This document shows positions 1,341-58,988 of a stretch of DNA of 64,000 bases, piece after piece. Under the pieces are notes generated by a model. The model was not told where the DNA came from. It searched no databases and saw only the letters and a program-made list of their open reading frames with translations. The translations under genes were made by a program, and so were the position numbers. Source of the stretch: an uncultured Candidatus Saccharibacteria bacterium (GTDB lineage: Bacteria > Patescibacteriota > Minisyncoccia > UBA6257 > UBA11618); assembly GCA_964362125.1 (NCBI GenBank), contig CAYICS010000001.1:18052-82051 (forward strand), in the 5' to 3' direction. Position 1 is the first letter of the stretch. The number at the start of each line of letters is the position of its first letter.

Positions 1341-3278
1341 TTGAAATCTAGCAAATTAAACCCGAAACAGCAAGAAGCGGTCAGCCACGGCTCTGGGCCG
1401 CTTTTGATTGCCGCCGGCGCCGGCTCAGGCAAGACCCAGACCCTCACCAACCGCCTCCAATACCTGATTAATACCCTCAAAATACCACCGGGAAATATTC
1501 TCGCCATTACTTTCACCAATAAAGCCGCTGATGAGATGAGAAAAAGGGTTCACATTGGTCAATTGTCAAATACTAAAGGTCAAATGTCATTTATAGGGAC
1601 TTTTCATTCTTTTGGAGCGAAAGTTCTCCGGGAAAACTGTCATCATTTCAACCGCACGCCCCGGTTCACCATCTTTGATGAAGACGACTCGCTGACGCTC
1701 TGCCGGCAAGTCTGCCGGAATCTTAATCTGGATAAGGAGAAATATAACCCCATCGATCTGGCGGGGCAGATTACTGAATTTAAAAATGAGTTGATCCGGC
1801 CTGACCCGACCACAGTCGAAGGCAAAGTCTTCTACGATTATGAAGCTAGTTTGGAAGAAAATAACGGCTTTGATTTTGATGACCTGATTGAAAAGCCGAT
1901 TAAACTATTGCGGGAGAAAGCCGGGATTTTAAAAAAATATCAGGAGCAGTATCAATATATTTTGATTGATGAATATCAGGATGTGAACGCGGCCCAGTAT
2001 CAGTTGGTGAAATTGCTGGCGGGAGAGCGAGCCAACCTCAGTGTTGTCGGCGATGATCAGCAGGCCATTTACGGCTGGAGAGGCGCCGACTTCCGCAACT
2101 TTCTTAACTTTGACAAAGACTGGCCAGCGGCCAAGGTGGTCCTGCTGGAAGAAAACTACCGCTCCACTCCCAATATTCTCCGGGCAGCCAACGAAATCAT
2201 AAAAAACAATAAATTTCAGCGACCGAAGCGCCTCTGGACGCAAAAACCAGAAGGGGAGCCGATCGTCCTTTTCGCTGCTCAAGAAGAACACGAAGAGGCC
2301 GATTGGCTAGCCGGAAAAATCCGTCAACTTTGGCAAAACCAAGGCCATGCGCTGGAAGGCATCGCCCTTATTTACCGCACCAATGCTCAATCGCGGGCCC
2401 TGGAACAGGCTCTGATTGCTGAAGAAGTCCCCTATCGTATTTTCGGCGGCATCAGATTTTACGAACGCAAAGAAATTAAAGATATCCTCGCCGGCCTGCG
2501 CCTGGCCCAAAACCCCAAAGACCAATTAAGTATCGAGCGGCTAGTCAAAAATTTCCCTCAAAGCAAAACCAAATTGCTGGTGGAACAATTGCCGCGGCTG
2601 GCTCAGGAACTAACCCTGATCCAGTTAATCAACTACTTTCTCAACCACACCGACTATTTTCAATATCTGGAACGCCGCTTCCGCAACTCTGAAGAACGAG
2701 AAGAAAACGTCAAAGAGTTAATCAATTTTGCCGCCAGCTTTGTCGACCGGGGCTTAACCGCTTTCTTGGAGCAGGTAAGTTTGGCTCAGGCCCAAGATGC
2801 TCCGGCCGGGGAGCGGGGAGTGAACTTGATGACCATTCACCTGGCTAAGGGGCTGGAATTTGATACGGTTTTTATCGCCGGCTGCAACGAAGGCACCCTG
2901 CCTCACCATCGCTCTTATAACACCGAAGAAGAATTGGAAGAAGAGCGGCGGCTGATGTATGTGGCCGTCACCCGGGCCAGCCAGCGGCTCTTTCTCTCTT
3001 TTAATAAAATCCCCTCTCGCTTTCTCTATGAAATCCCGCCGGAGCTGGTTCTCTTCATCAACCAAAATGGCCGGGCGCCGGCTCGCGGCCGCGAAGGCTG
3101 GTCAGCCGGCCGAAGCCCTGGCGAAGGTTGGTCAGCCAGCCGAAGCAGTGACGGGGGCTGGCCTGCCAGCCGAAGCGATGACGGGGGCTGGCCTGCCAGC
3201 CGAAGCGATGACGGGGGCTGGCCTGCCAGCCGAAGCCTTGGCGAAGGCTGGGAGGAAGAACTGTGGATTGATTATTAA
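1341..3278 (+). CDS. uvrD: ATP-dependent DNA helicase UvrD/PcrA with a repetitive C-terminal extension
   Basis: TTG start; Walker A GAGSGKTQTLTNR, UvrD motifs (DEYQD, GDDQQAIYGWRGA, YRS, VAVTRA). The C-terminal ~60 aa is built from 30-nt tandem repeats. Confidence 0.85.
   Translation: MKSSKLNPKQQEAVSHGSGPLLIAAGAGSGKTQTLTNRLQYLINTLKIPPGNILAITFTNKAADEMRKRVHIGQLSNTKGQMSFIGTFHSFGAKVLRENCHHFNRTPRFTIFDEDDSLTLCRQVCRNLNLDKEKYNPIDLAGQITEFKNELIRPDPTTVEGKVFYDYEASLEENNGFDFDDLIEKPIKLLREKAGILKKYQEQYQYILIDEYQDVNAAQYQLVKLLAGERANLSVVGDDQQAIYGWRGADFRNFLNFDKDWPAAKVVLLEENYRSTPNILRAANEIIKNNKFQRPKRLWTQKPEGEPIVLFAAQEEHEEADWLAGKIRQLWQNQGHALEGIALIYRTNAQSRALEQALIAEEVPYRIFGGIRFYERKEIKDILAGLRLAQNPKDQLSIERLVKNFPQSKTKLLVEQLPRLAQELTLIQLINYFLNHTDYFQYLERRFRNSEEREENVKELINFAASFVDRGLTAFLEQVSLAQAQDAPAGERGVNLMTIHLAKGLEFDTVFIAGCNEGTLPHHRSYNTEEELEEERRLMYVAVTRASQRLFLSFNKIPSRFLYEIPPELVLFINQNGRAPARGREGWSAGRSPGEGWSASRSSDGGWPASRSDDGGWPASRSDDGGWPASRSLGEGWEEELWIDY
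3091..3250 (+). repeat. About 5 tandem copies of a 30-bp repeat (ggctggcctgccagccgaagcgatgacggg-like) encoding GGWPASRSDD units at the UvrD C-terminus
   Basis: Direct reading: three perfect copies and two degenerate ones. Confidence 0.8.
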
Positions 3279-6800: not shown

Positions 6801-7197
6801 GTTATTGAAACAAATCGAAAATTTGGAAAAATGCCTTAAGGCCTATGAAGGCTCGGGCGGCGGCTATTGTGAAACTCCGCCTCTTTTTGGTATTGGCGAA
6901 AAACGAACCAAATTTATTAATACCAAAGAGGAGGCGGCTGAACAAGAAGAATACCTAGACCGCTACTATGAACAATTGCTTAAGGCACTTGACGATTTGA
7001 AAAAACATAATGCTGAAAAAGAAAAGCCGACGTCAGAATCGTCGCGTCAAGAAAAAGAGGACGACCCGCCCTTAAAAGACCAAAACCTGATGCCCCCTAT
7101 TCCAGCTTATCCATCTAAATCACCAGGATTAACAACTTACAATCAAGATCGGCTTGGACGCTGGCTTAACTTCTTTGATCGTCTGTTGTTTAAATGA
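6793..7197 (+). CDS. hypothetical acidic protein
   Basis: ORF overlapping its neighbours by 4-8 nt (operon-like coupling). Confidence 0.3.
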   Translation: MVELLKQIENLEKCLKAYEGSGGGYCETPPLFGIGEKRTKFINTKEEAAEQEEYLDRYYEQLLKALDDLKKHNAEKEKPTSESSRQEKEDDPPLKDQNLMPPIPAYPSKSPGLTTYNQDRLGRWLNFFDRLLFK

Positions 7198-7940
7198 AAC
7201 ATCTCGGTCAGCATTTCCTTAGAAATCACTCTGCTATTAAAAAAATAGCGGCGGCTTTGGAATTAAAAGAAGGTGATGTCGTTGTTGAAATCGGCTCCGG
7301 ACACGGGGAGTTGACCAACGAATTAATAAACCACCCTATCGAAGTCACCGCCATAGAAAGAGATAAAAACTTGGCGAAAACCCTTGAGTCAAATGTCAAA
7401 AGTCAAAGGTTAAAGGTTATTGAAGGCGACATTCTAAAACTCCTCCCGCAACTCACCTACAACCTACAACCTATCACCTACAAGCTTGTCGGCAACATTC
7501 CCTATTACCTCACCGGCTATTTATTGCGCCTAATAGGGGAGCTGGAATACAAGCCGTCGCTCATAGTTTTCACTCTTCAAAAAGAAGTAGCCGAACGGAT
7601 TGCGGCTAAACCGCCCAAGATGAATAAATTAGCCGCCTCGGTTCAATTCTGGGCTGAGCCGGCAATTATTGATTATCTCCAGCCCGCTGATTTTTCCCCG
7701 CCGCCAAAAGTACATTCGGCTATAATCCGTTTACGCCCTAAACCCCATACCCTAAACCCTAAACCCTATTATCAAATGATTAATCTGCTATTCAAACAGC
7801 CAAGAAAAACAATCAAAAACAACCTCCGCGGCACAGGACTGGAAAACCATTTTAAAACACTTAACCTCACCGGCCAAGAAAGACCGCAGGACTTAGATTT
7901 AGAAAAATTAATACAACTATCTCAGTTTATAAAACTCTAA
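7194..7940 (+). CDS. rsmA: 16S rRNA (adenine1518/1519-N6)-dimethyltransferase KsgA/RsmA
   Basis: HFLRNHSAIKKI...VVEIGSGHGELT SAM motif, NIPYY motif, C-terminal RKTIKNNL. Contains in-frame heptamer arrays (cctacaa-like at ~7458-7490; CCCTAAA at 7736-7769). Confidence 0.85.
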   Translation: MKHLGQHFLRNHSAIKKIAAALELKEGDVVVEIGSGHGELTNELINHPIEVTAIERDKNLAKTLESNVKSQRLKVIEGDILKLLPQLTYNLQPITYKLVGNIPYYLTGYLLRLIGELEYKPSLIVFTLQKEVAERIAAKPPKMNKLAASVQFWAEPAIIDYLQPADFSPPPKVHSAIIRLRPKPHTLNPKPYYQMINLLFKQPRKTIKNNLRGTGLENHFKTLNLTGQERPQDLDLEKLIQLSQFIKL

Positions 7941-8160
7941 ACTCTAAATAAAAGATTTAGGGTATAGGGTTTAGGGTTTAGGGTATAGGGTATTTATAAA
8001 GCTCTAAACTCCAAGCCCTAAGCTCTAAACAAACTCAAAACTCAAAAACGTTTTTGGATTTTGGATTTTGGTTTTTGGAATTTGTTTAGGATTTAGAGCT
8101 TTAGTTTATTTAAGGTTATCCACTAACTACTCACTGCTTCTTAACTTATAATTAAGAGTA
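7937..8160. repeat. Intergenic spacer built entirely of degenerate heptamer tandem repeats (ctctaaa, tttaggg/tataggg x5, aaaactc, attttgg x3 ...) arranged as a long imperfect palindrome
   Basis: 7-bp register holds for about 180 bp. Symmetry centre at aaaaacg|tttttgg (~8048). Contains a telomere-like TTTAGGG run. Confidence 0.8.
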
Positions 8161-8904
8161 ATGGGGCTAACAACAAGATTTGGCCTGGTATTTGGTATTG
8201 CCCTAGGACTTTTTGTTGTCTTAGTAATTTTTGGCAACCTCATTGGCCCGCCCACCCGACCCAATTTAGATCGGGTAGCCGGCGCCCCCGGCCTCCAGAC
8301 TGTGTATAACTTCCAGCAGATTGTTGCTCCCAGCCGTTACTTTAATCCTGTTACCAATCAAAACCTGACTAAAAGCTTGGCGGCTGTTATTGGCCGCAAT
8401 ATCGTAGAATTAAACCCGAAGGGGCCGCGGGCCTTCGATAGTCAGGGACAATTTTTAGGGGTGGCGGAAGCTGATGACGTGGCTGAAGCGGCACTGGCTG
8501 AAGCGCTCAAAAATTTTGACCAAAGTTCCTTCCGGCCGGCCATTGACCGGGAGCAAATAAAAATCAGTGATCAGCAGACAAAAGACAGCTACAAAAAATC
8601 CTTAGCCGCCATTCTTGAAAATCACTTCCTCAACTCTCCTTTGCCTTGGCGCAATACTTCTCCGGAAACGGCTGTACAAATCATCGGCACCTATAACGTT
8701 CTCCTCAACCAACTTTATAAATTACCAGCGCCGCCGGAACTGGTTGATTATCATCGGGAATTACTAAGTGTTTTCACTGGCCAGAAATTGGTGCTGGAAG
8801 CTTTTAAAAATTCCGAAGCTGATCCGCTGCGGGCAATTTTGGCAGCTGAAATGGTGAAAAATCTTAATCAGGAACTAAAGAGTCTGCTAAAAAACCGACT
8901 ATGA
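8161..8904 (+). CDS. hypothetical membrane-anchored protein (first gene of the T4SS-like cluster)
   Basis: N-terminal TM helix LVFGIALGLFVVLVIFGNLIG. Confidence 0.4.
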   Translation: MGLTTRFGLVFGIALGLFVVLVIFGNLIGPPTRPNLDRVAGAPGLQTVYNFQQIVAPSRYFNPVTNQNLTKSLAAVIGRNIVELNPKGPRAFDSQGQFLGVAEADDVAEAALAEALKNFDQSSFRPAIDREQIKISDQQTKDSYKKSLAAILENHFLNSPLPWRNTSPETAVQIIGTYNVLLNQLYKLPAPPELVDYHRELLSVFTGQKLVLEAFKNSEADPLRAILAAEMVKNLNQELKSLLKNRL

Positions 8905-14088: not shown

Positions 14089-14553
14089 ATGCAGTACCAA
14101 GTTCCCCAATTTATCGATGTTGAAGAAAAAATTGTCGGCCCACTGACCCTGAAACAATTCTTCTACCTGGCCGGCGCCTTCCTCATTCTTTTCTTTCTTT
14201 TCTTCATCTTTAAATTATGGCTGTGGCTGATTTTGGCGGTGATTATCGGCGGCGGCGCCATCGCCTTGGCTTTTGTCAAATACAACGGCCGGCCGTTGAC
14301 GATCATGATCAGGGCGATGCTGAGCTATTTCTGGCGGCCCCGCCGTTACAGCTGGCAGACCACCGGGCGTCCTTTAGGCGGGAAATTGGGGGAATTGGAA
14401 CTACAGCTAAAAACTTCCACTCAACCCATTGCTAAAAGAGAGCGGGGGTGGCTGGGTCGGATTTTTGGCGGCGGCAAAGCCGAAGAAAAATTCGAAATTT
14501 TAAGAAAAATCAGCGGCGAAAAAGAAGTCGCCCGGAGAATAGATTACAGATAG
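14089..14553 (+). CDS. VirB3-like T4SS protein (PrgI family; two TM helices)
   Basis: VPQFIDVEEKIVGPLTLKQFFYLAGAFLILFF matches the PrgI/ConD/VirB3-like signature (kI.GpltlrQf.yl), and it sits immediately upstream of virB4. The ORF-track start at 14047 is probably an over-extension. Confidence 0.5.
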   Translation: MQYQVPQFIDVEEKIVGPLTLKQFFYLAGAFLILFFLFFIFKLWLWLILAVIIGGGAIALAFVKYNGRPLTIMIRAMLSYFWRPRRYSWQTTGRPLGGKLGELELQLKTSTQPIAKRERGWLGRIFGGGKAEEKFEILRKISGEKEVARRIDYR

Positions 14554-14830
14554 ATGTACTAAGCCATAAGCCATAAGCCGTAAGCCATAAATCCTAAACT
14601 CTAAATCCTAAACAAATGACAATCATCCAAACTACAAATTCTAAACCCGAGTTTGGGATTTATGATTTAGATATTAGAATTTGTTTAGAGATTACCTGCC
14701 CGCCATCGGCCTGAGCCGAAGGCACTGGCAGGCGGGGAGATTAGAGCTTAGAGCTTTATAAATACCCTACCCCCTAAACGCTAAACCCTAAACGCTAAAC
14801 CCTAAACCCTAAACCCTAAACCACATACCC
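14554..14830. repeat. Heptamer-periodic spacer between virB3-like and virB4: (TAAGCCA)4, (TAAATCC/TAAACTC), ... (CCCTAAA/CGCTAAA)7, with an embedded 44-nt GC-rich hairpin element
   Basis: 7-bp register maintained. The telomere-like CCCTAAA run at 14786-14825 is the reverse complement of the 7965-8000 run. Confidence 0.8.
14694..14738. repeat. 42-44-nt GC-rich palindromic element, copy 1 (cctgcccgccatcggcctgagccgaaggcactggcaggcgggg), flanked by gagatta direct repeats
   Basis: Near-identical copy at 48027-48068 (2 substitutions plus a compensatory change in the inner stem). Confidence 0.7.
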
Positions 14831-15445
14831 TTGACCAAAGAAACTTTACCCACTCAAGAGCTGATCCCAATTGAAGATATCAAAAACGATACCCTGATTT
14901 TAAACAATGGCGGCCTGCGGAAAATTCTGCTGGTCTCGGGAGTGAATTTAGAATTGAAGTCAGAACAGGAACAGGAACTGACGATTCTCACTTACCAGGA
15001 TTTGATTAACTCCCTTGATTTTCCTATCCAGCAGCTGATTCACACCCGGAAACTTAATATTGAAGACTACCTGCGGAAAATTGGTCTGCGTCAGCAAAAC
15101 GAAAAACAACCCCTCTTGAAAAATCTTATTGAAGACTACCAGAAATTTGTCGGTGATTTTGTCAGCCAAAATCCCATTATGACCAAAAGTTTTTTCCTGG
15201 TTGTCCCTCATCAACCCCTGGCCAGCTTAAAACAAACAGGGAGGGCAGTCCGGAAAGGAGTCCTCGGCATCTTCCGCCGCCAGCCAGGGACTTTGATTGA
15301 AGCCGCTGAAGAAGACTTCCGGCAATTAGAACAAAAAGTTGAAAAAATTATCAATAACTTGGCCCAGATCGGTCTGCGCGCCCTGCCCCTTAATCGCGAA
15401 GAAATTTCCGAACTGCTTTACAATCTCTATAACCCAACTAATTAA
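14831..15445 (+). CDS. VirB4/TraE-like protein, N-terminal domain fragment (204 aa)
   Basis: IEDIKNDTLILNNGGLRKILLVSGVNLELKSEQEQELTILTYQDLINSLDFPIQQLI matches the N-terminus of Gram-positive VirB4 homologues (PrgJ/TrsE/ConE). Ends at TAA 15446-15448, 3 nt before the ATPase ORF. Confidence 0.5.
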   Translation: MTKETLPTQELIPIEDIKNDTLILNNGGLRKILLVSGVNLELKSEQEQELTILTYQDLINSLDFPIQQLIHTRKLNIEDYLRKIGLRQQNEKQPLLKNLIEDYQKFVGDFVSQNPIMTKSFFLVVPHQPLASLKQTGRAVRKGVLGIFRRQPGTLIEAAEEDFRQLEQKVEKIINNLAQIGLRALPLNREEISELLYNLYNPTN

Positions 15446-15448
15446 ACC

Positions 15449-17464: not shown

Positions 17465-17474
17465 TTTAGTTTCT

Positions 17475-17520
17475 CTTATGGCTTATGGCTTATGGCTTAT
17501 CTATGGCTTATGGCTTATAG
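17475..17520 (+). repeat. (TTATGGC) heptamer tandem repeat, 3 perfect and about 3 degenerate copies, covering the start codon and N-terminus of the next gene
   Basis: tcttatggcttatggcttatggcttatctatggcttatggcttatag; each unit contains an ATG. The reverse complement (GCCATAA)4 is present at 14560-14590. Confidence 0.85.
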
Positions 17521-18032
17521 CTTCTGCCGGCGAGCCGCCTGTCTTAATCCTCACCTGGCAGGCTGATAATTATGCTCCCAGCCCCTATCAAGGCAAAAAA
17601 CTGCCCAGCGCCGGCACCCCCATCAAGGTGGCTTTGCAAGTTTTTCAACATCGATTGGTCGGTGACATTACTAATAAAGAAATCCGCTGGTTTTTAAATA
17701 ATCAGCTGGCGGCCGCTGGCATTGGCCGCACCACTTTTACTTTCAATGCCCCCGGCTTAGGTGAAGACGGGGTGGTGGTCAGGGCTCAGGTGCGGGATTA
17801 CCACGGTCAGGAGGAAGATGGTTTTGCGGCTATTCCCATTGTCCAGCCTGAAGTGGTGATTGATCAATCGGCCCTACCCACCCTGCAGGGGCTTTTCTAC
17901 TTTTTTAACATCAACAGCGAAGCAGAACTGGAAACCAGCTGGCAGGACAATAATCATAACATCACTCTCAGAGCCCACCGTCGGACCAATCCCTTAGAGT
18001 CGGCCCAAGCCACCCTTTTGAAAAAACAATGA
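17478..18032 (+). CDS. hypothetical protein with repeat-encoded hydrophobic N-terminus (MAYGLWLIYGLWLIASAG)
   Basis: First in-frame ATG lies inside the heptamer array; the ORF-track start at 17433 overlaps the upstream gene. Confidence 0.4.
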   Translation: MAYGLWLIYGLWLIASAGEPPVLILTWQADNYAPSPYQGKKLPSAGTPIKVALQVFQHRLVGDITNKEIRWFLNNQLAAAGIGRTTFTFNAPGLGEDGVVVRAQVRDYHGQEEDGFAAIPIVQPEVVIDQSALPTLQGLFYFFNINSEAELETSWQDNNHNITLRAHRRTNPLESAQATLLKKQ

Positions 18033-31728: not shown

Positions 31729-32184
31729 TTGTTGCTCAATAGTCGGGGTTCTATTAATATATCAAGAATGGTTTCGGAATCAGTTGGTGATACCAAAAAA
31801 TTAGCCCAAAAATTAGCCCGATCTAAAAAAAGGATTTTTGCGCTGGTGGGAGAATTGGGATCGGGCAAAACCACTTTTGTTCAGGCATTTTTGCGCGCCC
31901 AAGGCGTCCGCAGCCGCATCACCAGCCCGACATTCGTGATTATAAAAAGATTTAAGATTTATGATTTAAGATTTAAGAACGCCTACCATATTGATTGCTA
32001 TAGATTAAAAAATTCCAAAGAACTGCTCAAGCTCGGCCTAAAAGAAATTCTCGCTAATAAGCACAACATTGTCTTAATTGAATGGGCGGATAAGATTAAA
32101 AGTTTATTACCCAAACGCGGCGTTCAGTGGATTTATTTTGAGCACAGCAGGATTGCTAAAGAAAGGAGAATTATTATAAAATAA
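31729..32184 (+). CDS. tsaE: tRNA threonylcarbamoyladenosine biosynthesis protein TsaE
   Basis: P-loop GELGSGKTTFVQ, SPTF, IEWAD motifs. Contains an in-frame (GATTTAA)4 heptamer array at 31949-31976. Confidence 0.75.
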   Translation: MLLNSRGSINISRMVSESVGDTKKLAQKLARSKKRIFALVGELGSGKTTFVQAFLRAQGVRSRITSPTFVIIKRFKIYDLRFKNAYHIDCYRLKNSKELLKLGLKEILANKHNIVLIEWADKIKSLLPKRGVQWIYFEHSRIAKERRIIIK

Positions 32185-33741: not shown

Positions 33742-34869
33742 ATGGTTAAAAGTTTGTCAATAGGCCCGGTTTTAGAGGCAATGCGCCGGCGTGGAATCTT
33801 GGTTGACCGCGAAAAGTTAAAAGTCAAAAGTGAAAAGTTAAGAAAAGAAATTAGGAAATTGGCGGCAGAAATTAAGAAATTAGCGGGCGAAGATTTTAAT
33901 CTCAATTCGCCCCGGCAGTTGTCGCGGATTCTTTTTGAGAAATTAAAGTTGGTTAAAGGCGGCCGCCGCACCAAAACCGGCCTCCGCTCCACCAGCGAGG
34001 CGGCTTTGGATAATTTGCGCGGCAGCCATCGGATTATTGACAAGATTCTCCAATACCGCGAGCAATTCAAACTACTTTCCACCTATCTTGAGCCGTGGCT
34101 GAAATATAGTCGGGCCAGCCGCGACGGCCGCATCCACCCCACTTTTCTTCAGGATGCCACCGCTACCGGCCGCCTCACTTGCCAAAATCCCAATCTGCAG
34201 AATGTCCCCTCACAATTACGTGAGGTTCTCGTGGCGGCTGCTGGCCACACTTTGATTTCTGTTGATTATTCCCAGATTGAACTGCGGGTGCTGGCTACTG
34301 TCACCAAAGACCCGGCTTTGCTTGAGGCCTTTGCCAAAGATTTGGATATTCACCAGCTGACAGCCAGTAAGGTTTTTAATGTACCACTGGAGAAGGTCAC
34401 TAAAGAGCAGCGCAATCTGGCCAAGACTTTAAACTTTGGCGTCATCTATGGAATGGGAGCAGCTGCCTTTGCCCGCGTCTCTGGCTTGAGTCGCAAAGAG
34501 GCCGAACAGTTTATCGAAGAGTATTTTCTGGAGTTTAAAAAGGTTCGGCAGTGGCAGGAGAAAGTAAAATGGGAATTGCAACAGAATGGTTATGTTGAGA
34601 ATTTAGAAGGCCAGCGGCGAGAGCTTGGCCCGGGAGAGGAACGAGCGGCTATCAATTTCCCTATTCAGAGTTTGGCAGCTCATATTATCAAGCTAGCGAT
34701 GATCAAAACCGCTAAATATCCTTTATTGCTTTCCATTCACGACCAATTGGTCTTTGAGATAGAAAAAGGTAAAATAAAAGGGAGCAGCGCCGCCATTAAA
34801 GAAATTATGGAATCAGTTTATAAACTGGCAGTGCCGCTCAAGGTTAATGTCACTTTGGGGAGTTGGTAA
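33742..34869 (+). CDS. polA: DNA polymerase I polymerase domain (no 3'-5' exonuclease domain) as a separate ORF
   Basis: Family A polymerase motifs: DYSQIELRVLA (motif A), RNLAKTLNFGVIYGMGA (motif B), SIHDQLVFE (motif C). Confidence 0.8.
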   Translation: MVKSLSIGPVLEAMRRRGILVDREKLKVKSEKLRKEIRKLAAEIKKLAGEDFNLNSPRQLSRILFEKLKLVKGGRRTKTGLRSTSEAALDNLRGSHRIIDKILQYREQFKLLSTYLEPWLKYSRASRDGRIHPTFLQDATATGRLTCQNPNLQNVPSQLREVLVAAAGHTLISVDYSQIELRVLATVTKDPALLEAFAKDLDIHQLTASKVFNVPLEKVTKEQRNLAKTLNFGVIYGMGAAAFARVSGLSRKEAEQFIEEYFLEFKKVRQWQEKVKWELQQNGYVENLEGQRRELGPGEERAAINFPIQSLAAHIIKLAMIKTAKYPLLLSIHDQLVFEIEKGKIKGSSAAIKEIMESVYKLAVPLKVNVTLGSW

Positions 34870-35953
34870 AACAGAAACAGCGCCGGCGGCCGCACTGGAA
34901 AAAGCTTTATTTGGAGCTTTGGTGGCGGTAATGGGCGAGGCGATTGTTGTTTATGACCGGAGTTTTAAGGTGAGTGTTTTCAATCAGCGGGCCGAGGATA
35001 TTTTTCGGATTAAGGCCAGTGAGATAGTCGGCCAGAATTTTACCCTCGAGCGCGCCCAGGAAGCAAAATGGCAGGCTCTGTCACCGGTGATTTATGCGTC
35101 GCTGGCGCCAACCGTAGTGCGATTGTCAGAGGTGGGTGTTTCTCCTGAGGTTTTAAAAATTATTTTAGAAAATCCCCACCGCGAGTTGGAGACGGCCACG
35201 ATTGAGGTGGGCGATCACTTTCTAAAAATTATTAAAGATAAGAGCCGCGAGGCCGAACTTTTAAAAGCCAAAAGCGAGTTTATCACCATTGCCGGGCATC
35301 AATTACGGACACCGACGACGGCAGCTAATTGGGCTTTTGAAAATCTTAAAAAAGTTTCTGGATTAGATACTGAGGCCCAACAATTAATTGACACTGGCTA
35401 TAAAGCCGTCCAAGCGGCTTTGAAAATAATTAATGATTTATTAAACGCCGCTCAGATTGAAGAGGGCAGATTTGGTTTTCAGTTTCAAGATGTCAATCTG
35501 GTGGAATTTTTGGATCAGGTTTTAGCCGGGGCTTTGCCAGCGGCCAAAGAGTCCAAAATAAATATTTACTTCGATCGCCCCGAGGAAAATGAAGTAATAA
35601 TTTCAGCTGACTCCAACCGGCTGGCGATGGCGGTTACTAACCTGATTGATAATGCTATTAAATATAATGTTTCTGGGGGTGAGGTGACAGTGAAATTAGA
35701 GGTAAAAGACAGTCAGGCGCAGGTGAGCGTCAAAGACACTGGCGTCGGAGTTAAAGAAGAAGACATTGCTAAACTGTTCAGCAAATTTTTCCGTGGCGAA
35801 AATATTAAGAAAACCGTTCCCACTGGCTCTGGGCTAGGTCTTTACATCGCGAAAAACATTATTGAGGCGCATAAGGGTAAAGTTTGGGTGGAGTCAGTGC
35901 CAAATAGAGGCTCTACTTTTTATTTCTCCATCCCTCTAAAAGTTAAAAGTTGA
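34847..35953 (+). CDS. sensor histidine kinase (PAS-like N-terminus, HisKA plus HATPase_c)
   Basis: H-box ITIAGHQLRTPTT, N-box NLIDNAIKYN, G1 DTGVGV, G2 GSGLGL. Confidence 0.75.
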   Translation: MSLWGVGKTETAPAAALEKALFGALVAVMGEAIVVYDRSFKVSVFNQRAEDIFRIKASEIVGQNFTLERAQEAKWQALSPVIYASLAPTVVRLSEVGVSPEVLKIILENPHRELETATIEVGDHFLKIIKDKSREAELLKAKSEFITIAGHQLRTPTTAANWAFENLKKVSGLDTEAQQLIDTGYKAVQAALKIINDLLNAAQIEEGRFGFQFQDVNLVEFLDQVLAGALPAAKESKINIYFDRPEENEVIISADSNRLAMAVTNLIDNAIKYNVSGGEVTVKLEVKDSQAQVSVKDTGVGVKEEDIAKLFSKFFRGENIKKTVPTGSGLGLYIAKNIIEAHKGKVWVESVPNRGSTFYFSIPLKVKS

Positions 35954-35962
35954 AAGTTTAAA

Positions 35963-36334
35963 GTGAAAAATGACAATTTAAAATTTAAAAATGAGTTTAA
36001 AATCAGGCTTTATAGATGGGTTTTGAGATTAGTTAAATTCATTGACAAATTACCAAGAGATTCTACTTGTGAGATTATGGGCAAACAATTACTTAGGAGT
36101 GGAACGAGTATCCTTGCTAATTATATAGAAGCTCTTTCTGCGAGTTCAAAGCGTGATTTTATCAATTTTTTCACTCATTCCTTGAAATCTGCCAATGAAT
36201 CAAAGCTTTGGCTTACTCTCTTAAGAGATATGATCAAGGGCGACGAGAAAGAATTAGCTTGGTTATTGAAAGAATTGGTAGAGATTGCTAATATTTTAGC
36301 TTCAAGTTTGTTGACCTTGAAAGGCAAGAGGTGA
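35963..36334 (+). CDS. four-helix-bundle protein (TIGR02436 / 23S rRNA intervening-sequence-protein family)
   Basis: Characteristic LRSGTSILANYIEA...SLKSANESKLWLTLL motifs; the gene is flanked by matching 9-10-mers. Confidence 0.6.
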   Translation: MKNDNLKFKNEFKIRLYRWVLRLVKFIDKLPRDSTCEIMGKQLLRSGTSILANYIEALSASSKRDFINFFTHSLKSANESKLWLTLLRDMIKGDEKELAWLLKELVEIANILASSLLTLKGKR

Positions 36335-37243: not shown

Positions 37244-37959
37244 TTATCTTTCTCTATGGCCCCGACAGCTATCGGCGCCAGCAAAAACAGCGGGAAATAA
37301 TAGAAAAATACAAAGCCAAACACTCGGCTTTGACTATTGACAGGTTTGATTTGGACGAGGAAGGCGCCCCTGACCGATTGAAAGAATTTTTAGAAGCTCG
37401 GTCGCTTTTTGGCGGGAAGAAACTAGCTATAATTTCCGGCTGGGATGATCAGGCGGCTGTTTTAGACGATGAAAGTCTGGTTTTATTAGTCTCAACTGAA
37501 AAAGGCGATCCGCCCAAAGGCGCAAAAGCCGAAGAATTCAAAAATTTAGAAGGGGCTGCTTGGGAAAAGTTTATTAATCAACAGGCTGTTAGCCGGCAGT
37601 TAACATTAAGTCCACAGGTTATCAACGGTTTAGTCACAGCTTATCAAGGGGATTCGTGGGGGCTGATTACAGAGCTTGATCAGCTTACTCTGTGCAATTT
37701 TCAATTACCAATTTTCAATTTTCAATTAAGGTATGATTTTATAGATTTAATCAAACAAATTTCTTGGAAAGGCGACTTATCCACAAAAATACCGGCTTTG
37801 GAAATCCTTCTCCACAACGAGGATCCCGGCAAAATCTTTAATCTCTTGGCCGCTTTCACCGGCAGCAGCCAAAAAATCCAGATGGCTGACTATGATGTAG
37901 CGGTAAAATCGGGAAAATTAGATTATGAAGCGGCGCTTATTGATTTTGTATTAAATTAG
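37228..37959 (+). CDS. putative DNA polymerase III delta subunit (HolA-like, short)
   Basis: N-terminus IIFLYGPDSYRRQQ resembles holA (iyllyGed.yl). Contains an in-frame (AATTTTC)5 heptamer array at 37696-37730. Confidence 0.35.
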   Translation: MPEVMIIFLYGPDSYRRQQKQREIIEKYKAKHSALTIDRFDLDEEGAPDRLKEFLEARSLFGGKKLAIISGWDDQAAVLDDESLVLLVSTEKGDPPKGAKAEEFKNLEGAAWEKFINQQAVSRQLTLSPQVINGLVTAYQGDSWGLITELDQLTLCNFQLPIFNFQLRYDFIDLIKQISWKGDLSTKIPALEILLHNEDPGKIFNLLAAFTGSSQKIQMADYDVAVKSGKLDYEAALIDFVLN

Positions 37960-38925: not shown

Positions 38926-40740
38926 TTATACAATATCAGAAAGATGTGGTTCATGCAACTTCTTAATGATGGAGGCCGGGATGATGCCCAGCTTCTTGTT
39001 ATAGCGAGCCTGAATTTTTCGGCGCCGCTCAGTTTCAGTAATTGTTTTTTTAATGGAGTCAGTGAGGAAGTCGGCGTAGAGGATTACCTCGCCTTTGATG
39101 GAACGTGAAGCTCGGCCAGCCATTTGCATCAAACTGCGGTGATTGCGCAAAAAACCCTCTCGGTCCGCGTCAAGAATCGCAACCAGAGAAACTTCCGGCA
39201 GATCCAGCCCCTCCCGTAAAAGATTGATGCCCACCAACACATCGACATCGCCCCGCCGCAATTGATTGAGAATTTTCGGTCGCTGCAGAGTTTTGATTTC
39301 CGAGTGCATATAATTGGCGCGGATGCCCCGGGCCAAGAGAAATTCTGTGAGGTTTTCCGAGGCGCGTTTGGTGAGAGTGAGAGCCAGGACTCGTTCGTTG
39401 TTGCGGACACGCTTGGTGATTTCTTCAATCAGATTAGCTACTTGAGAAACCGCCGGCCGGACAATAATTTTTGGATCAAGGATGCCGGTGGGGCGAACCA
39501 ATTGTTCCGCCACCCGGCCGCGCTCTAATTCATATGACCCGGGAGTGGCCGAGACACAAATTGTCTGGCCAATGCGTTGGTTGAATTCTTTAAAAGCGAG
39601 CGGCCGGTTATCAAAGGCTGAAGGCAGACGAAAACCATAATTCACTAAAGTCTGCTTGCGGCGCCGGTCGCTTTCCTGCATCGCCCGCAGTTGAGGAATG
39701 GCAATGTGGGATTCGTCAATAAAGAGCAGAAAGGGGCGGGGGAAGTAGTCAAGTAATGTCAGCGGCGGCTCGCCGGGCTGGCGAAAATCTAAATGGCGGG
39801 AGTAATTTTCAATTCCGTGGACATAGCCTTTTTTCTTAAGCATCTGCAGATCAAAAAGAGTACGGCGTTCCAGCCGGTCGGCTTCTTCAAATTTGCCGGC
39901 GGCCTGCAGTTCGTCCATTCTCTCTTCCATTTCAGTCTTAATGTTGCGCAGAGAGAGATTAAAGAGATGCTGGGGAGTGACCCAAAACTTTGCTGGATAA
40001 ATATCCAGCAAAGTTTGACTTTTGACAGTTGACAATTGATCATTGACCAATTGAATTGTTTTAATTCTTCTTTTTTTGATCTCGATTTCTAGTTTTTCAT
40101 CGGTTACCAAATGTACTTTTACTAAAGTAATTCTACGATCGTGGAGATAGTTTAGTAGAGCGAATTGACCGAGCGCGGGTTCTTGGTTGGGGCGAGCTTT
40201 TTCATAACGGAGGAATTGCAGATGGCGCTCAATGTCTTTTTCGTTGATTATTTGCCCGACGCGCATTTTCAAGCGGGCTTTGCGATAGTTTTCCGGACTG
40301 CCGAGGCCGTAGATGCAGGAAACAGAAGCGATCACAATTGCATCCGGCCGCGACAAAACACTTTGAATGGCGGCGTGGCGCAGTTTATCAATATCCAGAT
40401 TAATCCGGGCGTCTTTTTGAATATAGGTTTGAGTCAGCGGTAGATAGGCCTCGGGTTGGTAGTAGTCGTAAAAAGAAACAAAATAGTGGACAGCATTGCT
40501 GGGGAAGAAGTTTTTGAATTCCTGATAGAGCTGGGCGGCGAGAGTCTTGTTGGGAGAAATGATCAGTGTTGGCAGGTCGGTTTTGGCAATCACCGAAGCC
40601 ATGGTGTAGGTTTTGCCTGATCCGGTGACGCCCAAAAGCACCTGGTCTTTCAGGTTTTCGTCGAGGCCGCCAATTAGCTTTTTAATAGCTTGAGGCTGGT
40701 CGCCTTTGGGCTGAAATTGAGAAATTAGATGGAAACTCAT
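38926..40740 (-). CDS. uvrB: excinuclease ABC subunit B (UvrB)
   Basis: Walker A GVTGSGKTYTMA, beta-hairpin region, DESH box (IDESHIAIPQ), helicase C motifs. Contains half of a CGATCG palindromic element in frame at ~40113-40140. Confidence 0.9.
   Translation of the reverse strand: MSFHLISQFQPKGDQPQAIKKLIGGLDENLKDQVLLGVTGSGKTYTMASVIAKTDLPTLIISPNKTLAAQLYQEFKNFFPSNAVHYFVSFYDYYQPEAYLPLTQTYIQKDARINLDIDKLRHAAIQSVLSRPDAIVIASVSCIYGLGSPENYRKARLKMRVGQIINEKDIERHLQFLRYEKARPNQEPALGQFALLNYLHDRRITLVKVHLVTDEKLEIEIKKRRIKTIQLVNDQLSTVKSQTLLDIYPAKFWVTPQHLFNLSLRNIKTEMEERMDELQAAGKFEEADRLERRTLFDLQMLKKKGYVHGIENYSRHLDFRQPGEPPLTLLDYFPRPFLLFIDESHIAIPQLRAMQESDRRRKQTLVNYGFRLPSAFDNRPLAFKEFNQRIGQTICVSATPGSYELERGRVAEQLVRPTGILDPKIIVRPAVSQVANLIEEITKRVRNNERVLALTLTKRASENLTEFLLARGIRANYMHSEIKTLQRPKILNQLRRGDVDVLVGINLLREGLDLPEVSLVAILDADREGFLRNHRSLMQMAGRASRSIKGEVILYADFLTDSIKKTITETERRRKIQARYNKKLGIIPASIIKKLHEPHLSDIV
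40113..40140. repeat. degenerate copy (left arm plus core) of the CGATCG-centred palindromic element (tactaaagtaattctacgatcgt), in frame inside uvrB
   Basis: 22-mer identical to the left half of the 63441-63478 palindrome; followed by tttagtagag as in the other copies. Confidence 0.6.
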
Positions 40741-42644: not shown

Positions 42645-43970
42645 ATGAAGTTGACTTTCTATGGCGGTGTTAAAGAAGTCACCGGCGCCAATTATTTGCT
42701 GGAGTCCGGAGATACGAAAATTTTAATTGATTGCGGCCTGAAGCAGGGCAGTAATTATGTGGAAAGACAGAACTGGGAGCCGTTTCCTTATAAACCAACA
42801 GAGATCGAGGCGGTTTTTGTGACGCATACCCATATTGATCACATCGGCCGCCTCCCCCTGCTTTCCAAGAGGGGATTTAGAGGGAAAATTTATTCCACCC
42901 CGCCGACTAAAGAGGCCGCCGCCCTACTGTTGCTGGATTCAATTCATGTCTTGGAGCAGGAGGCCAGGAAGCATAATAAACCGCCCCTTTGCACCGAGGG
43001 TGACGCCCGGGTGGTGATGGAGGCTTGGCAGACAATTGATTACTACCAACCGCTGACCATTGGGAATTTAAAAGTTTCCCTATATAACTCCGGCCATATT
43101 CTCGGTTCGGCCAGTATTCTTTTTGACGATGGTAAAACTAAAATTGTTTTTTCCGGCGATCTGGGTAATAGTCCGGCGCCTCTGCTTGGTGATAAAGATA
43201 ATCTGCCGGAATGCGATTATGCGGTGATGGAATCAGCTTATGGCGGCCGGACGCATGAGGATTTGGAACAGCGCCAGGAAATTTTGGAGGATTTAATAGA
43301 GGAAACTGCCAAGGCCGGCGGGGTTTTAATGATTCCGGCTTTTGCCATGGAGCGGACGCAGGAGATGCTTTATGAAATTGACAAGCTGGCTGATGAGGGG
43401 CGGATCCCCCGGGTGCCGATATTTTTGGATAGTCCCTTGGCCATCCGCCTCACTGATGTTTACAACCAATACAAAAATTATCTTAAAGCTGATGGGGAAA
43501 TCCATTTCAAATTTAAAGATTTAAAAATGACGATGACTACCGAAGAGTCAAAGGCCATCGCCCGGACGCCGCCGCCTAAAGTAATCATCGCCGGTTCTGG
43601 TATGTCCAATGCCGGCCGGATTTTATTTCATGAGAAAAATTATCTATCAGACTCCCACAACACTTTATTGATTATCGGCTATCAAGCCACCGGATCGCTG
43701 GGCCGGCAATTACTTGACGGCGCCAAAGAAGTAAAAATTCTTGGCGAAAAAGTGCCGGTGCGGGCGCGGATTAAAGCCATCGGCGGCTATTCAGCTCATG
43801 CTGACCAGCCGCAGTTGCTCGACTGGCTTAAACCCCAACGGCAACTGCTTAAAAAAATTTTCGTGGTGCAGGGCGAAGATGATCAAAGCGCGGCTTTAGT
43901 CCGGAAAGTCAGAGACGATCTGGCTATTGAGGCAATAATTCCTGATATCGGGGTGAAGTATGAATTATGA
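42645..43970 (+). CDS. MBL-fold beta-CASP family hydrolase (RNase J/CPSF-like RNA-metabolising metallo-beta-lactamase)
   Basis: HTHIDHIG (HxHxDH) motif, Asp/His beta-CASP motifs, about 440 aa. Confidence 0.6.
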   Translation: MKLTFYGGVKEVTGANYLLESGDTKILIDCGLKQGSNYVERQNWEPFPYKPTEIEAVFVTHTHIDHIGRLPLLSKRGFRGKIYSTPPTKEAAALLLLDSIHVLEQEARKHNKPPLCTEGDARVVMEAWQTIDYYQPLTIGNLKVSLYNSGHILGSASILFDDGKTKIVFSGDLGNSPAPLLGDKDNLPECDYAVMESAYGGRTHEDLEQRQEILEDLIEETAKAGGVLMIPAFAMERTQEMLYEIDKLADEGRIPRVPIFLDSPLAIRLTDVYNQYKNYLKADGEIHFKFKDLKMTMTTEESKAIARTPPPKVIIAGSGMSNAGRILFHEKNYLSDSHNTLLIIGYQATGSLGRQLLDGAKEVKILGEKVPVRARIKAIGGYSAHADQPQLLDWLKPQRQLLKKIFVVQGEDDQSAALVRKVRDDLAIEAIIPDIGVKYEL

Positions 43971-43995
43971 ATTATGAATTAGGAATTATGGTATA
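43961..43995 (+). repeat. (ATGAATT)3-AGGAATT-ATGGTAT heptamer array spanning the stop codon of the MBL gene and the TGGTATAAT promoter of the next gene
   Basis: Direct reading; an extended -10 TGGTATAAT at ~43988-43996. Confidence 0.7.
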
Positions 43996-58256: not shown

Positions 58257-58988
58257 ATGCGTTTATCGCCATCCACACTCAATCTTTTCTTGGAGTGCCC
58301 CAAGTGTTTTTATATGGAGTTGAAAATGGGCATTCACCGGCCCCAGGGGCCGTTTCCGTCTTTGCCCGGCGGCATGGATGGTTTGATTAAAAAATATTTT
58401 GATAAATATCGGCTCTTGGGTCAAATGCCGCCGGAAATTGAAGGCCGAGTGGAGGGAGCCCAGCTTTTTCCCGATGTGGAGGTTTTGAATCAATGGCGCA
58501 ACTGGCGCACCGGTTTGTCTTATCAAGATAAAGAAACAGGAGCTACTTTAAGCGGCGCCTTGGATGATTGTTTGGTGCAGGATAAAAAGTATATGCCGAT
58601 GGATTATAAAACCCGCGGCTATGATGTAAAAGAAGGCGGGGAGAGATTTTATCAAAATCAGATGGACAGCTATGATCTGCTCCTGCAAAAAAACGGCTTT
58701 AAGACCGCGGGTTGGGCGTGGTTGATATATTGGATTCCAAAAGAAATTCAAAACTCAAAAGGCAAAACTCAAAACTACAACTCAAAGATTAAAAATACGG
58801 CCAGTCTTTTTGAAGAAAATAATAGCAATAGCGCTTGGGTAAGGTTTGTGATTGATCCCAAGAAAATGAAAACCGATGCTGATTCGGCTCTAAAGGTTTT
58901 TCGCGATGCGGTGAAGTTATTGGAGGGGCCGATGCCCAAAGCTCATTCGGTTTGTACATTTTGCTCTTGGGCCAGCGCGCCCAGCTAG
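58257..58988 (+). CDS. PD-(D/E)XK nuclease superfamily protein, Cas4-like with 4 Cys (stand-alone; no CRISPR array nearby)
   Basis: N-terminus SPSTLNLFLECPKCFY; catalytic D...D / MDYKT (D/E-x-K) motifs; C-terminal CTFC. Contains an in-frame (CAAAACT) heptamer array at 58749-58787. Confidence 0.5.
   Translation: MRLSPSTLNLFLECPKCFYMELKMGIHRPQGPFPSLPGGMDGLIKKYFDKYRLLGQMPPEIEGRVEGAQLFPDVEVLNQWRNWRTGLSYQDKETGATLSGALDDCLVQDKKYMPMDYKTRGYDVKEGGERFYQNQMDSYDLLLQKNGFKTAGWAWLIYWIPKEIQNSKGKTQNYNSKIKNTASLFEENNSNSAWVRFVIDPKKMKTDADSALKVFRDAVKLLEGPMPKAHSVCTFCSWASAPS

Follow-up and report, generated by a model that had tools for sequence, protein, structure and literature searches.

The question raised by this locus is why two intergenic spacers of a bacterial contig should be crowded with repeats of seven nucleotides, some of them identical to the plant telomere unit TTTAGGG. 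The stretch analysed (64,000 nucleotides of contig CAYICS010000001.1, the whole of which we call the window) comes from 0.1-µm-filtered groundwater of the Hainich observatory, well H51; its proteins are nearest to those of Patescibacteria of the Paceibacteria group, for example Harrisonbacteria and Wolfebacteria, and it is a groundwater Patescibacteria (candidate phyla radiation, CPR) contig. An earlier note, made from the letters alone, had laid out the two spacers correctly: ksgA (Pfam RrnaAD, E 8.7e-46) stops at 7940 and the following open reading frame (ORF) begins at 8161 (spacer 1), and a PrgI-family ORF stops at 14553 and a TraC-like/VirB4 ORF begins at 14831 (spacer 2). We find a mirrored-heptad element of 110-150 bp once in each of the two spacers, in opposite orientations; the element belongs to a multi-copy family. 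With regard to mechanism, we favor the possibility, at a probability of about one half, that this is a dispersed element whose heptads would serve as protein-recognition units and on which ordinary 7-nt slippage is superimposed.

Two spacers, one composite

Heptamer arrays are present in both spacers, as the earlier note had described: Tandem Repeats Finder (TRF) reports period 7 at many sites (Table 1), and identity at a lag of 7 is 0.58-0.72, every other lag giving at most 0.42. The arrays do not keep the constant 7-nt register that had been claimed, as the CTAA/TTAG phase shifts from one array to the next, nor is spacer 2 made almost entirely of heptamers, positions 14613-14736 being occupied by the interior of a palindrome together with a GC-rich hairpin of 42 nt. 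What had been overlooked is the homology of the two spacers as copies of one dispersed element. Spacer 1 aligns end to end with the reverse complement of spacer 2 (alignment A1) over about 200 nt at a mean column identity of 75%, blastn giving one block of 59 nt at 88% and another of 76 nt at 76%, and the non-repetitive 20-mer GGGTATTTATAAAGCTCTAA is common to both spacers and unique to them in the window, with 0 expected in 100 shuffles. Relative to spacer 1, spacer 2 has two insertions, one of which is the 42-nt hairpin. The two spacers are homologous copies of one composite in opposite orientation.

Two ENA and three Logan assemblies, stemming from three assemblers or pipelines, cover spacer 1 with genes on both sides and are 100% identical to the window. 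Spacer 2 is covered at 99.96% identity by one ENA contig (L001), and in a further ENA replicate its length is likewise 277 nt. Because independent assemblies agree over the spacers, the repeats are not an assembly artefact, the possibility that the earlier note had raised against its own observation. The contigs encoding the spacer-flanking proteins all come from one well and are mutually identical; the nearest VirB4 in the databases is 72% identical and the nearest KsgA 63% identical at the protein level, and in these collections there is no closer relative for a strain-level comparison of the spacers.

It might still be asked whether the arrays are telomere-related sequence or an artefact, given that TTTAGGG is the Arabidopsis-type telomere unit and that the Logan contigs break within the arrays (at 7993, 8071 and 8042). 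Such contig ends would be expected of a 31-mer (short k-mer) graph at internally repeated words. In every covering assembly the arrays are internal and flanked by genes on either side, and they hold at most 8 units with other heptamers interspersed. Furthermore, of the 161 arrays found in the window and its relatives only 3 have CCCTAAA/TTTAGGG as their consensus, and the remaining units are highly diverse. Because TTTAGGG is one among very diverse units, its identity to the plant telomere repeat, on which the earlier note had laid weight, is coincidental; nothing here is telomeric. Together with the agreement among assemblies, this leaves a telomeric or artefactual origin with a negligible chance.

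Anatomy and conservation of the element

The element (110-150 bp), which forms the core of both spacers, consists of two arms, each of about 7-9 consecutive heptads, around a variable centre. Left-arm units have the form NN-CTAAA and grade inward to NN-CAAAA; in the right arm the pattern is mirrored, running from TTTTG-NN on the inner side to TTTAG-NN on the outer. At 16-37% GC the element is AT-rich, and it has no ORF. A sequence model built from 39 family members (R1) finds exactly two strong copies in the window (Table 1). Copy 1 carries the family 17-mer CTAAATCCTAAACAAAT at 8080-8096 on the minus strand and contains inverted repeats I1 and I7; copy 2 carries it at 14601-14617 on the plus strand and is collinear with the reverse complement of spacer 1. 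The imperfect palindrome seen earlier in spacer 1 is borne out, with 36-nt arms that are 75% complementary and 23-nt arms that are 83% complementary. Per-column information content across the family outlines a heptad G-n-n-t-T-T-a in the right arm, mirrored in the left arm, and has a lag-7 autocorrelation of 0.37-0.44, also in columns unused for sequence selection. In a host of 65% GC (contig L162) the variable positions are now G or C and the core is retained.

Mirrored arms of this kind could also mean a structured RNA, that is, a transcribed imperfect hairpin acting as a bidirectional terminator, as an RNase III site or mRNA stabiliser, or as a small RNA. There is precedent for transcribed palindromic repeats affecting mRNA in the enterobacterial repetitive intergenic consensus (ERIC) and Correia elements. 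Both spacers fold well as RNA (spacer 1, -65 kcal/mol, z -4.75; spacer 2, -63.6 kcal/mol, z -4.71; 0 of 200 shuffles as good in each case), and in a hand-specified helix 72% of the cells are able to pair at the true register, compared with 51-53% when the partner is slid by one column. Against this, we found that: (i) covariation over the family is 0.096 versus 0.107 in shuffles, 477-497 of 500 shuffles being at least as high, with no compensatory changes; (ii) variable heptad positions are mostly mismatched across the arms, without compensation; (iii) RNAalifold on the family alignment returns 0 pairs and no consensus structure; (iv) no canonical terminator is called in the spacers and there is no U-tail; (v) over the whole window only the transfer-messenger RNA (tmRNA) and one tRNA reach the Rfam gathering score, and a permissive Rfam search of the spacers gives at best a plant miRNA hairpin at 26 bits against a 90-bit cut-off; and (vi) there is no strand preference. 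A structured RNA is, on this evidence, improbable.

Because covariation is absent and conservation is 7-periodic, the conserved object is a mirrored motif every 7 nt and not a base-paired stem, and we infer from this that recognition of the heptads by a protein is favored over a structured RNA. The omega repressor of plasmid pSM19035, a ribbon-helix-helix protein, offers a model for such recognition: its operators are runs of adjoining 7-bp units (WATCACW), some direct and some inverted, that share a conserved core, each unit is bound by a dimer and the protein polymerises along the array, and the arrays are plasmid-borne and linked to the omega/delta genes. The element likewise has contiguous 7-bp units with a conserved core, both direct and inverted. 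It differs from the omega operators in unit sequence and in its many chromosomal and phage copies.

Distribution and context of the family

The 17-mer, which lies in the left arm, and its partner ATTTGTTTAGGATTTAG stand unchanged in the copies of three further Paceibacteria genomes (L024, L081 and L084). Our sample of relatives comprises 1.26 Mb from 80 related genomes, +/-10 kb around virB4, and R1 finds 10 copies in 9 of them, with scores of 50-77 bits. Copies recur near the same genes, namely in the PrgI-TraC spacer (window and L019), upstream of prgI (L060 and L081) and flanking ksgA (window, L045 and L024); the L019 copy and the L045 copy, which is just downstream of ksgA, stand at the window's own positions. 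In six relatives (L006, L008, L010, L014, L023 and L025) the PrgI-TraC spacer measures 20-60 nt by tblastn match coordinates, and because this is too short for 110-150 nt the element is absent there. The PrgI-TraC spacer therefore shows presence and absence of the element, carried by the window and L019 and lacking in the six.

Beyond these relatives, the JGI metagenomes hold at least 120 contigs with the 17-mer, on contigs of 31-65% GC, the partner arm lying within 160 nt in 64 of the 124 matches listed. L162, the contig of 65% GC, has three element copies, and because its RhaA is 75-76% identical to Thermoguttaceae proteins it is a planctomycete contig. The 17-mer also occurs on 27 viral contigs; phage carriers include L228/L214, with a Mu-like head gene and tail genes, and L225, with a portal-scaffold-capsid order, and phage L228 has four copies at intergenic junctions. 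Dispersed copies therefore number 2 in the window, 10 in the relatives, 3 on L162, 4 on L228 and at least 64 palindromic ones in metagenome loci. One of 75 copies lies inside an ORF. The genes neighbouring the 48 classifiable copies are in tandem for 33, divergent for 8 and convergent for 7, which in our judgement is about the ratio of any intergenic site, and relative to transcription 14 copies are sense and 12 antisense. The flanking genes in other phyla are unrelated (rhaA, argG and a GNAT-like ORF). A second small repeat, a GC-rich hairpin, is combined with the element into mosaics. In L089, L095 and L150 the left arm continues, beside the 17-mer, into other heptamer arrays (TAGCTAT/CAGCCTT/CTGACTG)n, so composite heptamer mosaics are not special to the window genome.

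This distribution bears on the simplest alternative, that the arrays are all independent products of 7-nt slippage and the spacers look alike through similar units. Such a view is in keeping with the lineage-wide, unit-agnostic period-7 excess described below, with the heptanucleotide excess known in many prokaryotes and with the inverted heptamer pairs of Xanthomonas (PMC4692102). It does not account for a non-repetitive 20-mer shared exactly where 0 is expected, for spacers collinear over about 200 nt, for the reappearance, in unrelated genomes of 31-65% GC, of the 17-mer with its partner arm and of heptad variants that follow one another in the same order, or for R1 scores of 50-77 bits. 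Slippage as the whole explanation is very unlikely: it is contradicted for the element core and is the best account of the peripheral and in-gene arrays.

Some of the phage copies stand in a leader position. In L228 (also in L214, L209 and L211) near-identical cassettes of about 105 nt precede three structural genes (L228 2380-2500, 5690-5810 and 6940-7180); each cassette is half a heptad element followed by an (ACGAGCG)n array that reaches the ATG, and a fourth half-element stands in tandem within the 6940-7180 gap, all four having the same orientation. In the wider family, a CTCC-N2-5-GGAG mini-hairpin, in which a Shine-Dalgarno sequence is paired to its own complement, abuts an arm together with a start codon in 8 of 150 copies versus a background of 0.4% (about 13-fold), most cases being before phage capsid-like genes. 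The form CTCC-GAA-GGAG was seen at L205 941, L208 2569, L213 7715, L225 3542 and L226 4901, spaced exactly 19-20 nt from the 17-mer and 5-8 nt ahead of the start codon; the gene that follows is argG-like in L205 and begins like a phage major capsid gene in L208, L225 and L226.

Because of the L228 cassettes, the mini-hairpins and the CCCTAAA/CGCTAAA array of spacer 2, which ends 6 nt upstream of the TTG start of the TraC-like ORF where there is no Shine-Dalgarno sequence, a leader or operator role is possible for some copies. Extended to the whole family, this would make the element an expression or regulatory cassette, either a promoter-proximal operator or a centromere-like array for a heptad-binding protein of the host that would control ksgA and the type IV secretion-like cluster, or a ribosome standby site or translational enhancer in the 5' untranslated region. 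The recurrence of copies at PrgI-TraC, upstream of prgI and beside ksgA agrees with such a role, and a comparable proposal was made for TAACTGA repeats by MacGregor 2015 (PMC4679880). It is at odds with the lack of an overall orientation bias (14:12), with the 7 of 48 classifiable copies between convergent genes, where there is no leader, with the unrelated flanking genes in other phyla and with a promoter scan that found no enrichment of sigma-70-like promoters in the region (9 versus 10.1 expected); the positional recurrence, moreover, may reflect sampling of the virB4 neighbourhood alone. We consider a general cassette function unlikely, though deserving of serious weight.

Relation to known dispersed repeats

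[quoted passage not shown] The mirrored-heptad element resembles them in all of these respects: it is of that size, non-coding and intergenic, has mirrored inverted arms, is dispersed in multiple copies, is neutral in orientation and forms mosaics. It differs in that no target-site duplication or parent insertion sequence was found, in that the arms are internally 7-periodic and in that the family spans phyla and a 34-point spread in GC. Because target-site duplications and a transposase-bearing parent were not found, we do not file it as a MITE and call it only MITE-like. In being AT-rich and 110-150 bp long it is also unlike the repetitive extragenic palindromes of BIMEs, which are GC-rich, 20-40 bp long, marked by a GTAG/CGTC tag and linked to a RAYT transposase.

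As far as can be told, this is an undescribed family with unusual periodic conservation, found across phyla and in phages. We found no description of the element sequence in the literature that could be searched, string matches being unrelated primers; a MITE survey (PMC11602168) has no mention of Patescibacteria, CPR, tandem repeat, phyla or words in heptam-; and a family member compared with the PLSDB plasmids gave one short, chance-level match (an Enterococcus plasmid).

A lineage-wide excess of period-7 arrays

The 7-nt periodicity of the window is real and non-random. TRF lists more than 25 period-7 rows in the 64 kb; exact lag-7 runs of at least 10 bases number 13 versus 0.15 in dinucleotide shuffles; and with a sliding detector the period-7 arrays number 17, or 19 when the setting is looser, versus 0 in locally shuffled sequence and 0 in 50 kb of E. 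coli K-12. Periods other than multiples of 7 give 0-3 arrays with this detector, and periods 5, 6 and 8 give 0-9 depending on threshold. The note's view that the periodicity is not bent-DNA architecture is upheld. Two of the lesser arrays that it had listed are period 7 by TRF, that of 17475-17520 at 17475-17523 and that of 43961-43995 at 43954-43990; the one at 55830-55870 is marginal, with 2-3 degenerate units under the TRF threshold, and the one at 63479-63520 has periods 10, 18 and 5, not 7.

The arrays are less of an intergenic feature than had been thought. Heptamers fill only 2 of about 14 spacers of 150 bp or more, and 13 of the 19 arrays are mostly coding, although density is five times higher in noncoding DNA (11.8 versus 2.2 arrays per 10 kb; 3 per 10 kb overall). 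In the relatives, where the note had proposed to look for the periodicity, period 7 is dominant, with 142 arrays versus 58 for period 6, 46 for period 8 and 81 for period 9, and the units are highly diverse. We rejected the idea that the free arrays are built of the element's heptad, as 5 of the 142 have units that resemble it better than unit shuffles at p<=0.05. Because the free arrays lack the element heptad, the window is best described as a general 7-nt tandem bias plus a specific mirrored-heptad element. The bias is lineage-wide and unit-agnostic.

There is precedent for a bias of this kind. The earlier note had held the tandem heptamer TTTAGGG to be unexpected in the interior of a bacterial chromosome, yet bacterial heptanucleotide repeats are no surprise: according to the summaries in PMC4679880 and PMC4692102, heptanucleotides were the most abundant long simple-sequence repeats (SSRs) of many prokaryotes in the study of Mrazek et al. 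2007, who proposed slipped-strand mispairing or polymerase slippage with a 7-nt footprint. The arrays described here comprise at least 3 head-to-tail 7-nt units and are over-represented relative to chance and to other unit lengths. In the accounts given there of prokaryotic heptanucleotide SSRs, including the short tandemly repeated repetitive (STRR) sequences of Calothrix and Nostoc, the same features appear, namely a 7-nt excess with many units per genome, greater density in intergenic DNA, a proposed slippage with 7-nt footprint and no established function. The present case differs in its CPR host, in its density of 3 per 10 kb with two thirds in-frame in housekeeping genes and in that part of the repeats belongs to a conserved palindromic element and is not a set of free microsatellites. 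We found no report in the literature of a heptanucleotide repeat excess in Patescibacteria (CPR). The heptamer excess here is a known kind of feature in a new lineage.

Two published systems come closer still. Rehm et al. 2015 (PMC4692102) described intergenic G-rich heptamers, GGGAATC in Xanthomonas and GGGGAYT in Nostoc, sometimes as inverted pairs, conserved in position between species and not in length. These resemble the present arrays in a G3-4 tract with an A/T-rich remainder, G-quadruplex potential, inverted stem-loop pairs and the use of the same intergenic sites with varying length and sequence; here, in contrast, G3-type units are a minority and the conserved feature is the TT-G / C-AA core, not the G-tract. 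A G-quadruplex regular expression, which calls for at least 4 G3+ tracts with short loops on a single strand, predicts motifs at 7960-7990 (plus strand, in the TTTAGGG/TATAGGG array 7956-7994 with its six G3 tracts), 7736-7766 (minus) and 62849-62872 (minus), and 14772-14825 has only 3 adjacent C3 tracts with loops of at most 7 nt. The TAACTGA repeats of marine Beggiatoaceae and of some Cyanobacteria and Bacteroidetes (PMC4679880) are likewise one heptamer family across distant phyla, mostly intergenic, often just upstream of starts, with stops in all frames and suspected horizontal spread. They are simple direct arrays, whereas the element has mirrored, graded heptad arrays around a variable centre, another sequence and other hosts, phages included.

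Arrays inside genes and the ksgA hot spot

A feature that had been overlooked is that arrays lie in-frame inside housekeeping genes: ksgA (three), tsaE, the polymerase part of Pol A, uvrB, a PD-(D/E)XK nuclease gene, a class-I aminoacyl-tRNA synthetase (aaRS) gene (three) and the N-terminus of a membrane protein (Table 1). Since 7 and 3 share no common factor, a CCCTAAA array left pure meets a stop codon in each of the frames; in the coding CCCTAAA arrays every third unit has TAA changed to TAT, CAT or TAC, and the peptide LNPKPYTLNP is encoded alike in KsgA and the synthetase. The three arrays of KsgA fall on the three indel-variable loops of the family alignment, where relatives carry insertions. 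At the 7453-7480 site related units occur in L023, L080, L029 and L038; at the 7742-7770 site P0003 and P0016 have a similar peptide of the same length and P0002 a 23-aa insertion. Insertions at the array sites occur in L015 and P0002, the L015 ksgA having about 65 extra residues at these sites. That the arrays of the window's ksgA are themselves recent insertions was considered and rejected, as homologs have the same length there.

Across the relatives, 14 period-7 arrays fall in 24.9 kb of ksgA, compared with none in the roughly 223 kb made up by virB4, traC, prgI and four more neighbouring genes, and the probability that length share alone would place all 14 in ksgA is about 1e-14. The genes concerned are those of L007, L012, L015, L023, L029, L038, L061 and L080, and the same loops recur. 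At the site just before YKLVGNIPYY the units are related across lineages (acctaca, agctaca, agttaca, aactata) and homogenised within each, a pattern that suggests an array of long standing whose units are still being made uniform through slippage or conversion.

Arrays within ORFs and beside start codons, with ksgA as a recurrent target, could be taken for contingency loci, in which the gain or loss of one 7-nt unit would switch genes, ksgA among them, by frameshift; a preprint (bioRxiv 10.1101/2024.05.01.592015) describes heptanucleotide tracts that can be frameshifting hypermutable sites. This role, one of those put forward in the earlier note, we regard as highly improbable. All independent assemblies, from one population, are identical; the genes concerned are housekeeping genes; and the in-gene arrays are imperfect, with 3-5 units, a preserved frame and mutated stop-creating units, which is the opposite of a tuned switch.

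Weighing the preferred reading

To return to the reading that we favor, the element would be a non-coding dispersed repeat of the MITE/BIME/ERIC/Correia kind that enters or persists in intergenic DNA whatever the orientation of its neighbours. Its periodic core would be kept because a protein reads it once per 7 bp, and this protein might be a transposase, a recombinase or a DNA-binding protein of the host, much as pSM19035 omega reads its heptad operators. The lineage-wide, unit-agnostic tandem excess, the pattern of which is observed, would arise by slipped-strand mispairing; slippage would lengthen and diversify the arrays at the element margins (TTTAGGG, CCCTAAA, TAAGCCA and GAGCTTA) and would also create arrays elsewhere, including in-frame ones in indel-tolerant loops of housekeeping genes. 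The mirrored-heptad element itself may have grown by the same 7-nt process. Of the roles suggested at the outset, our evidence favors two: arrays bound by a protein that recognises heptads, and products of a process that generates repeats or is mobile.

Several observations weigh against this reading: (i) no target-site duplications were recognised in the few flanks inspected (L162 and others), where the ends are blurred by peripheral heptamers; (ii) no transposase-bearing parent was seen among 6 arm pairs 0.2-4.5 kb apart, the two inspected pairs enclosing a GNAT-like ORF (L129) and a phage scaffold gene (L225) and the other four having a largest enclosed ORF of 66-122 aa; (iii) with an identity of only about 75%, the window's two copies give no hint that transposition was recent here; (iv) there is no candidate heptad-binding protein among the neighbouring ORFs scanned, which have no Pfam match or unrelated ones, no systematic search having been made; (v) the four half-copies of phage L228 are co-oriented and three pass through (ACGAGCG)n directly into an ATG, an arrangement that looks more like an expression cassette than a selfish insertion; (vi) the recurrence of copies around prgI/traC and ksgA could mean a local function, within a sample of only +/-10 kb around virB4; and (vii) slippage does not account for 14 arrays in 25 kb of ksgA versus none in about 223 kb.

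A bolder idea, which we regard as a long shot, is that the 7-nt periodicity is the footprint of a machine common to phyla and phages, either a protein polymerising on DNA or RNA in 7-nt steps or a dedicated process that generates or homogenises 7-nt repeats. In the first form, the mirrored GNNTTTA arrays would be sites for regulation, for partition or chromosome organisation, or for DNA uptake via the type IV secretion-like cluster; in the second, the process would act even within essential genes and repeatedly target ksgA; and either form would explain the heptanucleotide excess in prokaryotes.

The window adds a third major lineage with heptanucleotide excess, that of the ultra-small CPR with genomes of about 1 Mb, at high density, and it shows that in-frame repeats are tolerated within essential genes. 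With its core of G-n-n-T-T-T-a repeated every 7 nt, the element provides a definite bait with which to look for the binding protein, and its cross-phylum spread offers a marker for gene flow between phages and hosts that are otherwise difficult to connect. If it is merely a selfish repeat, it is still a new family, and one that breaks short-read assemblies.

Features of the window

Table 1. Coordinates of the spacers, element copies and period-7 arrays in the window (TRF, Tandem Repeats Finder; detector, sliding period-7 detector)
Feature	Position	Strand	Remarks
Spacer 1, whole	7925..8165	+	Homologous end to end with reverse complement of spacer 2
Spacer 2, whole	14550..14835	-	Spacer 1 composite plus two insertions
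TRF period-7 arrays, spacer 1	7932-7948, 7958-7993, 7999-8028, 8031-8047, 8052-8084		
TRF period-7 arrays, spacer 2	14560-14590, 14588-14612, 14737-14756, 14764-14822		
Element copy 1, palindromic	7999..8107	-	R1 70 bits, E 7.7e-21 (- strand); 58.5 bits (+ strand)
Element copy 2, orientation opposite to copy 1	14582..14694	+	R1 73.3 bits, E 7.1e-22
20-mer GGGTATTTATAAAGCTCTAA, first copy	7988..8007	+	Between TTTAGGG-type and GCTCTAA-type arrays
20-mer GGGTATTTATAAAGCTCTAA, second copy	14748..14767	-	Exact match
AAACTCT array, 2.4 units	7932..7948	+	TRF; overlaps ksgA stop codon
TTTAGGG/TATAGGG array, ~5.5 units	7956..7994	+	TRF 7958-7993, 5.1 copies, 93% matches; detector
TTTTGGA array, ~4.7 units	8049..8084	+	TRF 8052-8084; detector; inner right arm of element copy 1
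TAAGCCA array, 4.4 units	14558..14590	+	TRF; blastn match to 17475-17517
GC-rich hairpin, 42 nt	14695..14736	+	Inserted between heptads; flanked by GAGATTA direct repeats
GAGCTTA array, 2.9 units	14737..14757	+	TRF
CCCTAAA/CGCTAAA array, 8.4 units	14764..14825	+	TRF score 90
ksgA in-frame heptamer array	7387..7419	+	Encodes ..SNVKSQRLKV..; indel-variable loop in KsgA alignment A2
ksgA in-frame ACCTACA array	7453..7480	+	Encodes QLTYNLQPITYKL; just before conserved YKLVGNIPYY
ksgA in-frame CCCTAAA array	7742..7770	+	Encodes PKPHTLNPKPYY; every third unit TAA -> CAT/TAT
TTATGGC array, ~7 units	17472..17525	+	TRF; hydrophobic N-terminus of next called gene (call in L001)
tsaE in-frame AAGATTT array	31946..31979	+	TRF and translation
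In-frame AAAAGTT array	33811..33841	+	Near start of polymerase-only Pol A gene
TAAAAGT array	35936..35964	+	Across histidine-kinase stop codon and junction to next gene
In-frame CAATTAT-type array	37702..37729	+	ORF without Pfam hit
uvrB in-frame array	40014..40034	-	Detector
TGAATTA array, 5.3 units	43953..43990	+	Spans beta-CASP RNase stop codon and short junction to next gene
PD-(D/E)XK nuclease gene, in-frame array	58756..58776	+	TRF and detector
Class-I aaRS gene, in-frame array	61205..61225	+	TRF and detector
Class-I aaRS gene, in-frame CCCTAAA array	62842..62873	+	Encodes SLNPKPYTLNP, as in KsgA
Class-I aaRS gene, in-frame AAAAATT array	63083..63107	+	TRF and detector

The TAAGCCA array of spacer 2 recurs as its reverse complement at 17475-17523. 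The 23S rRNA intervening-sequence protein gene (PF05635, 35963-36334, plus strand) directly follows the TAAAAGT array, and a tmRNA gene lies at 57509-57829 on the minus strand (125 bits).

Other repeats and neighbouring genes

The GC-rich hairpin of spacer 2, an insertion in alignment A1, has a DNA fold of -15.3 kcal/mol (z -3.6); it matches 48017-48077 at 85% over 61 nt and recurs at 48027-48068. As a module, CCTGCCCGCC...GGCAGGCGGG, it is 42 nt long, GC-rich and dispersed in the window (14685-14745 and 48017-48077). The 48-kb copy has the direct repeat AAAATTGGAAATT on its flanks and is in-frame within an O-antigen ligase-like (Wzy_C) ORF, which runs on over a tRNA gene at 48205-48276. Three metagenome contigs, unrelated to the window (L162, L169 and L203), have similar CCTGCC...GGCAGG hairpins in or next to their family members, and the L024 copy is flanked by a GC-rich palindrome of another kind.

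Two further repeats have a second copy inside a gene. At its 3' end (3092-3251) a UvrD-like helicase ORF has a tandem series of five GC-rich, hairpin-like units of 30 nt, CGAAGGCTGGCCTGCCAGCCGAAGCCATGA, and a 41-nt copy of this repeat, at 90% identity, is found within the Wzy_C ORF (47417-47457). Downstream of the aaRS gene there is a 41-nt near-perfect palindrome CTAAAGTAATTCTACGATCGTAGAATTACTTTAG (63457-63497), followed by a period-10 array (AGATTAGTAG)n, and a 90% identical copy of the palindrome lies within the uvrB ORF (40119-40159).

In the type IV secretion-like cluster, a 985-aa proline/threonine-rich ORF contains a 150-nt direct repeat at 89% identity (12261-12410 and 12852-13001). 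The length of this protein differs between independent assemblies (874, 985 and 788 aa among the window, L001, L002 and L238), and because the assemblies disagree the gene is polymorphic or collapsed in assembly, unlike the heptamer spacers. The VirB4-like ATPase (14831-17144) is split between two ORFs, an N-terminal TraC-like one of 204 aa, which has a TTG start without a Shine-Dalgarno sequence, and one of 564 aa with the P-loop; the split is kept across the 80 relatives. DNA polymerase I is likewise split, into a 5'-3' exonuclease gene and a polymerase-only gene without a 3'-5' exonuclease (32452-33324 and 33742-34869), about 400 nt apart and with a GC-rich hairpin between them; that this split might be linked to the 7-nt duplication bias is pure speculation.

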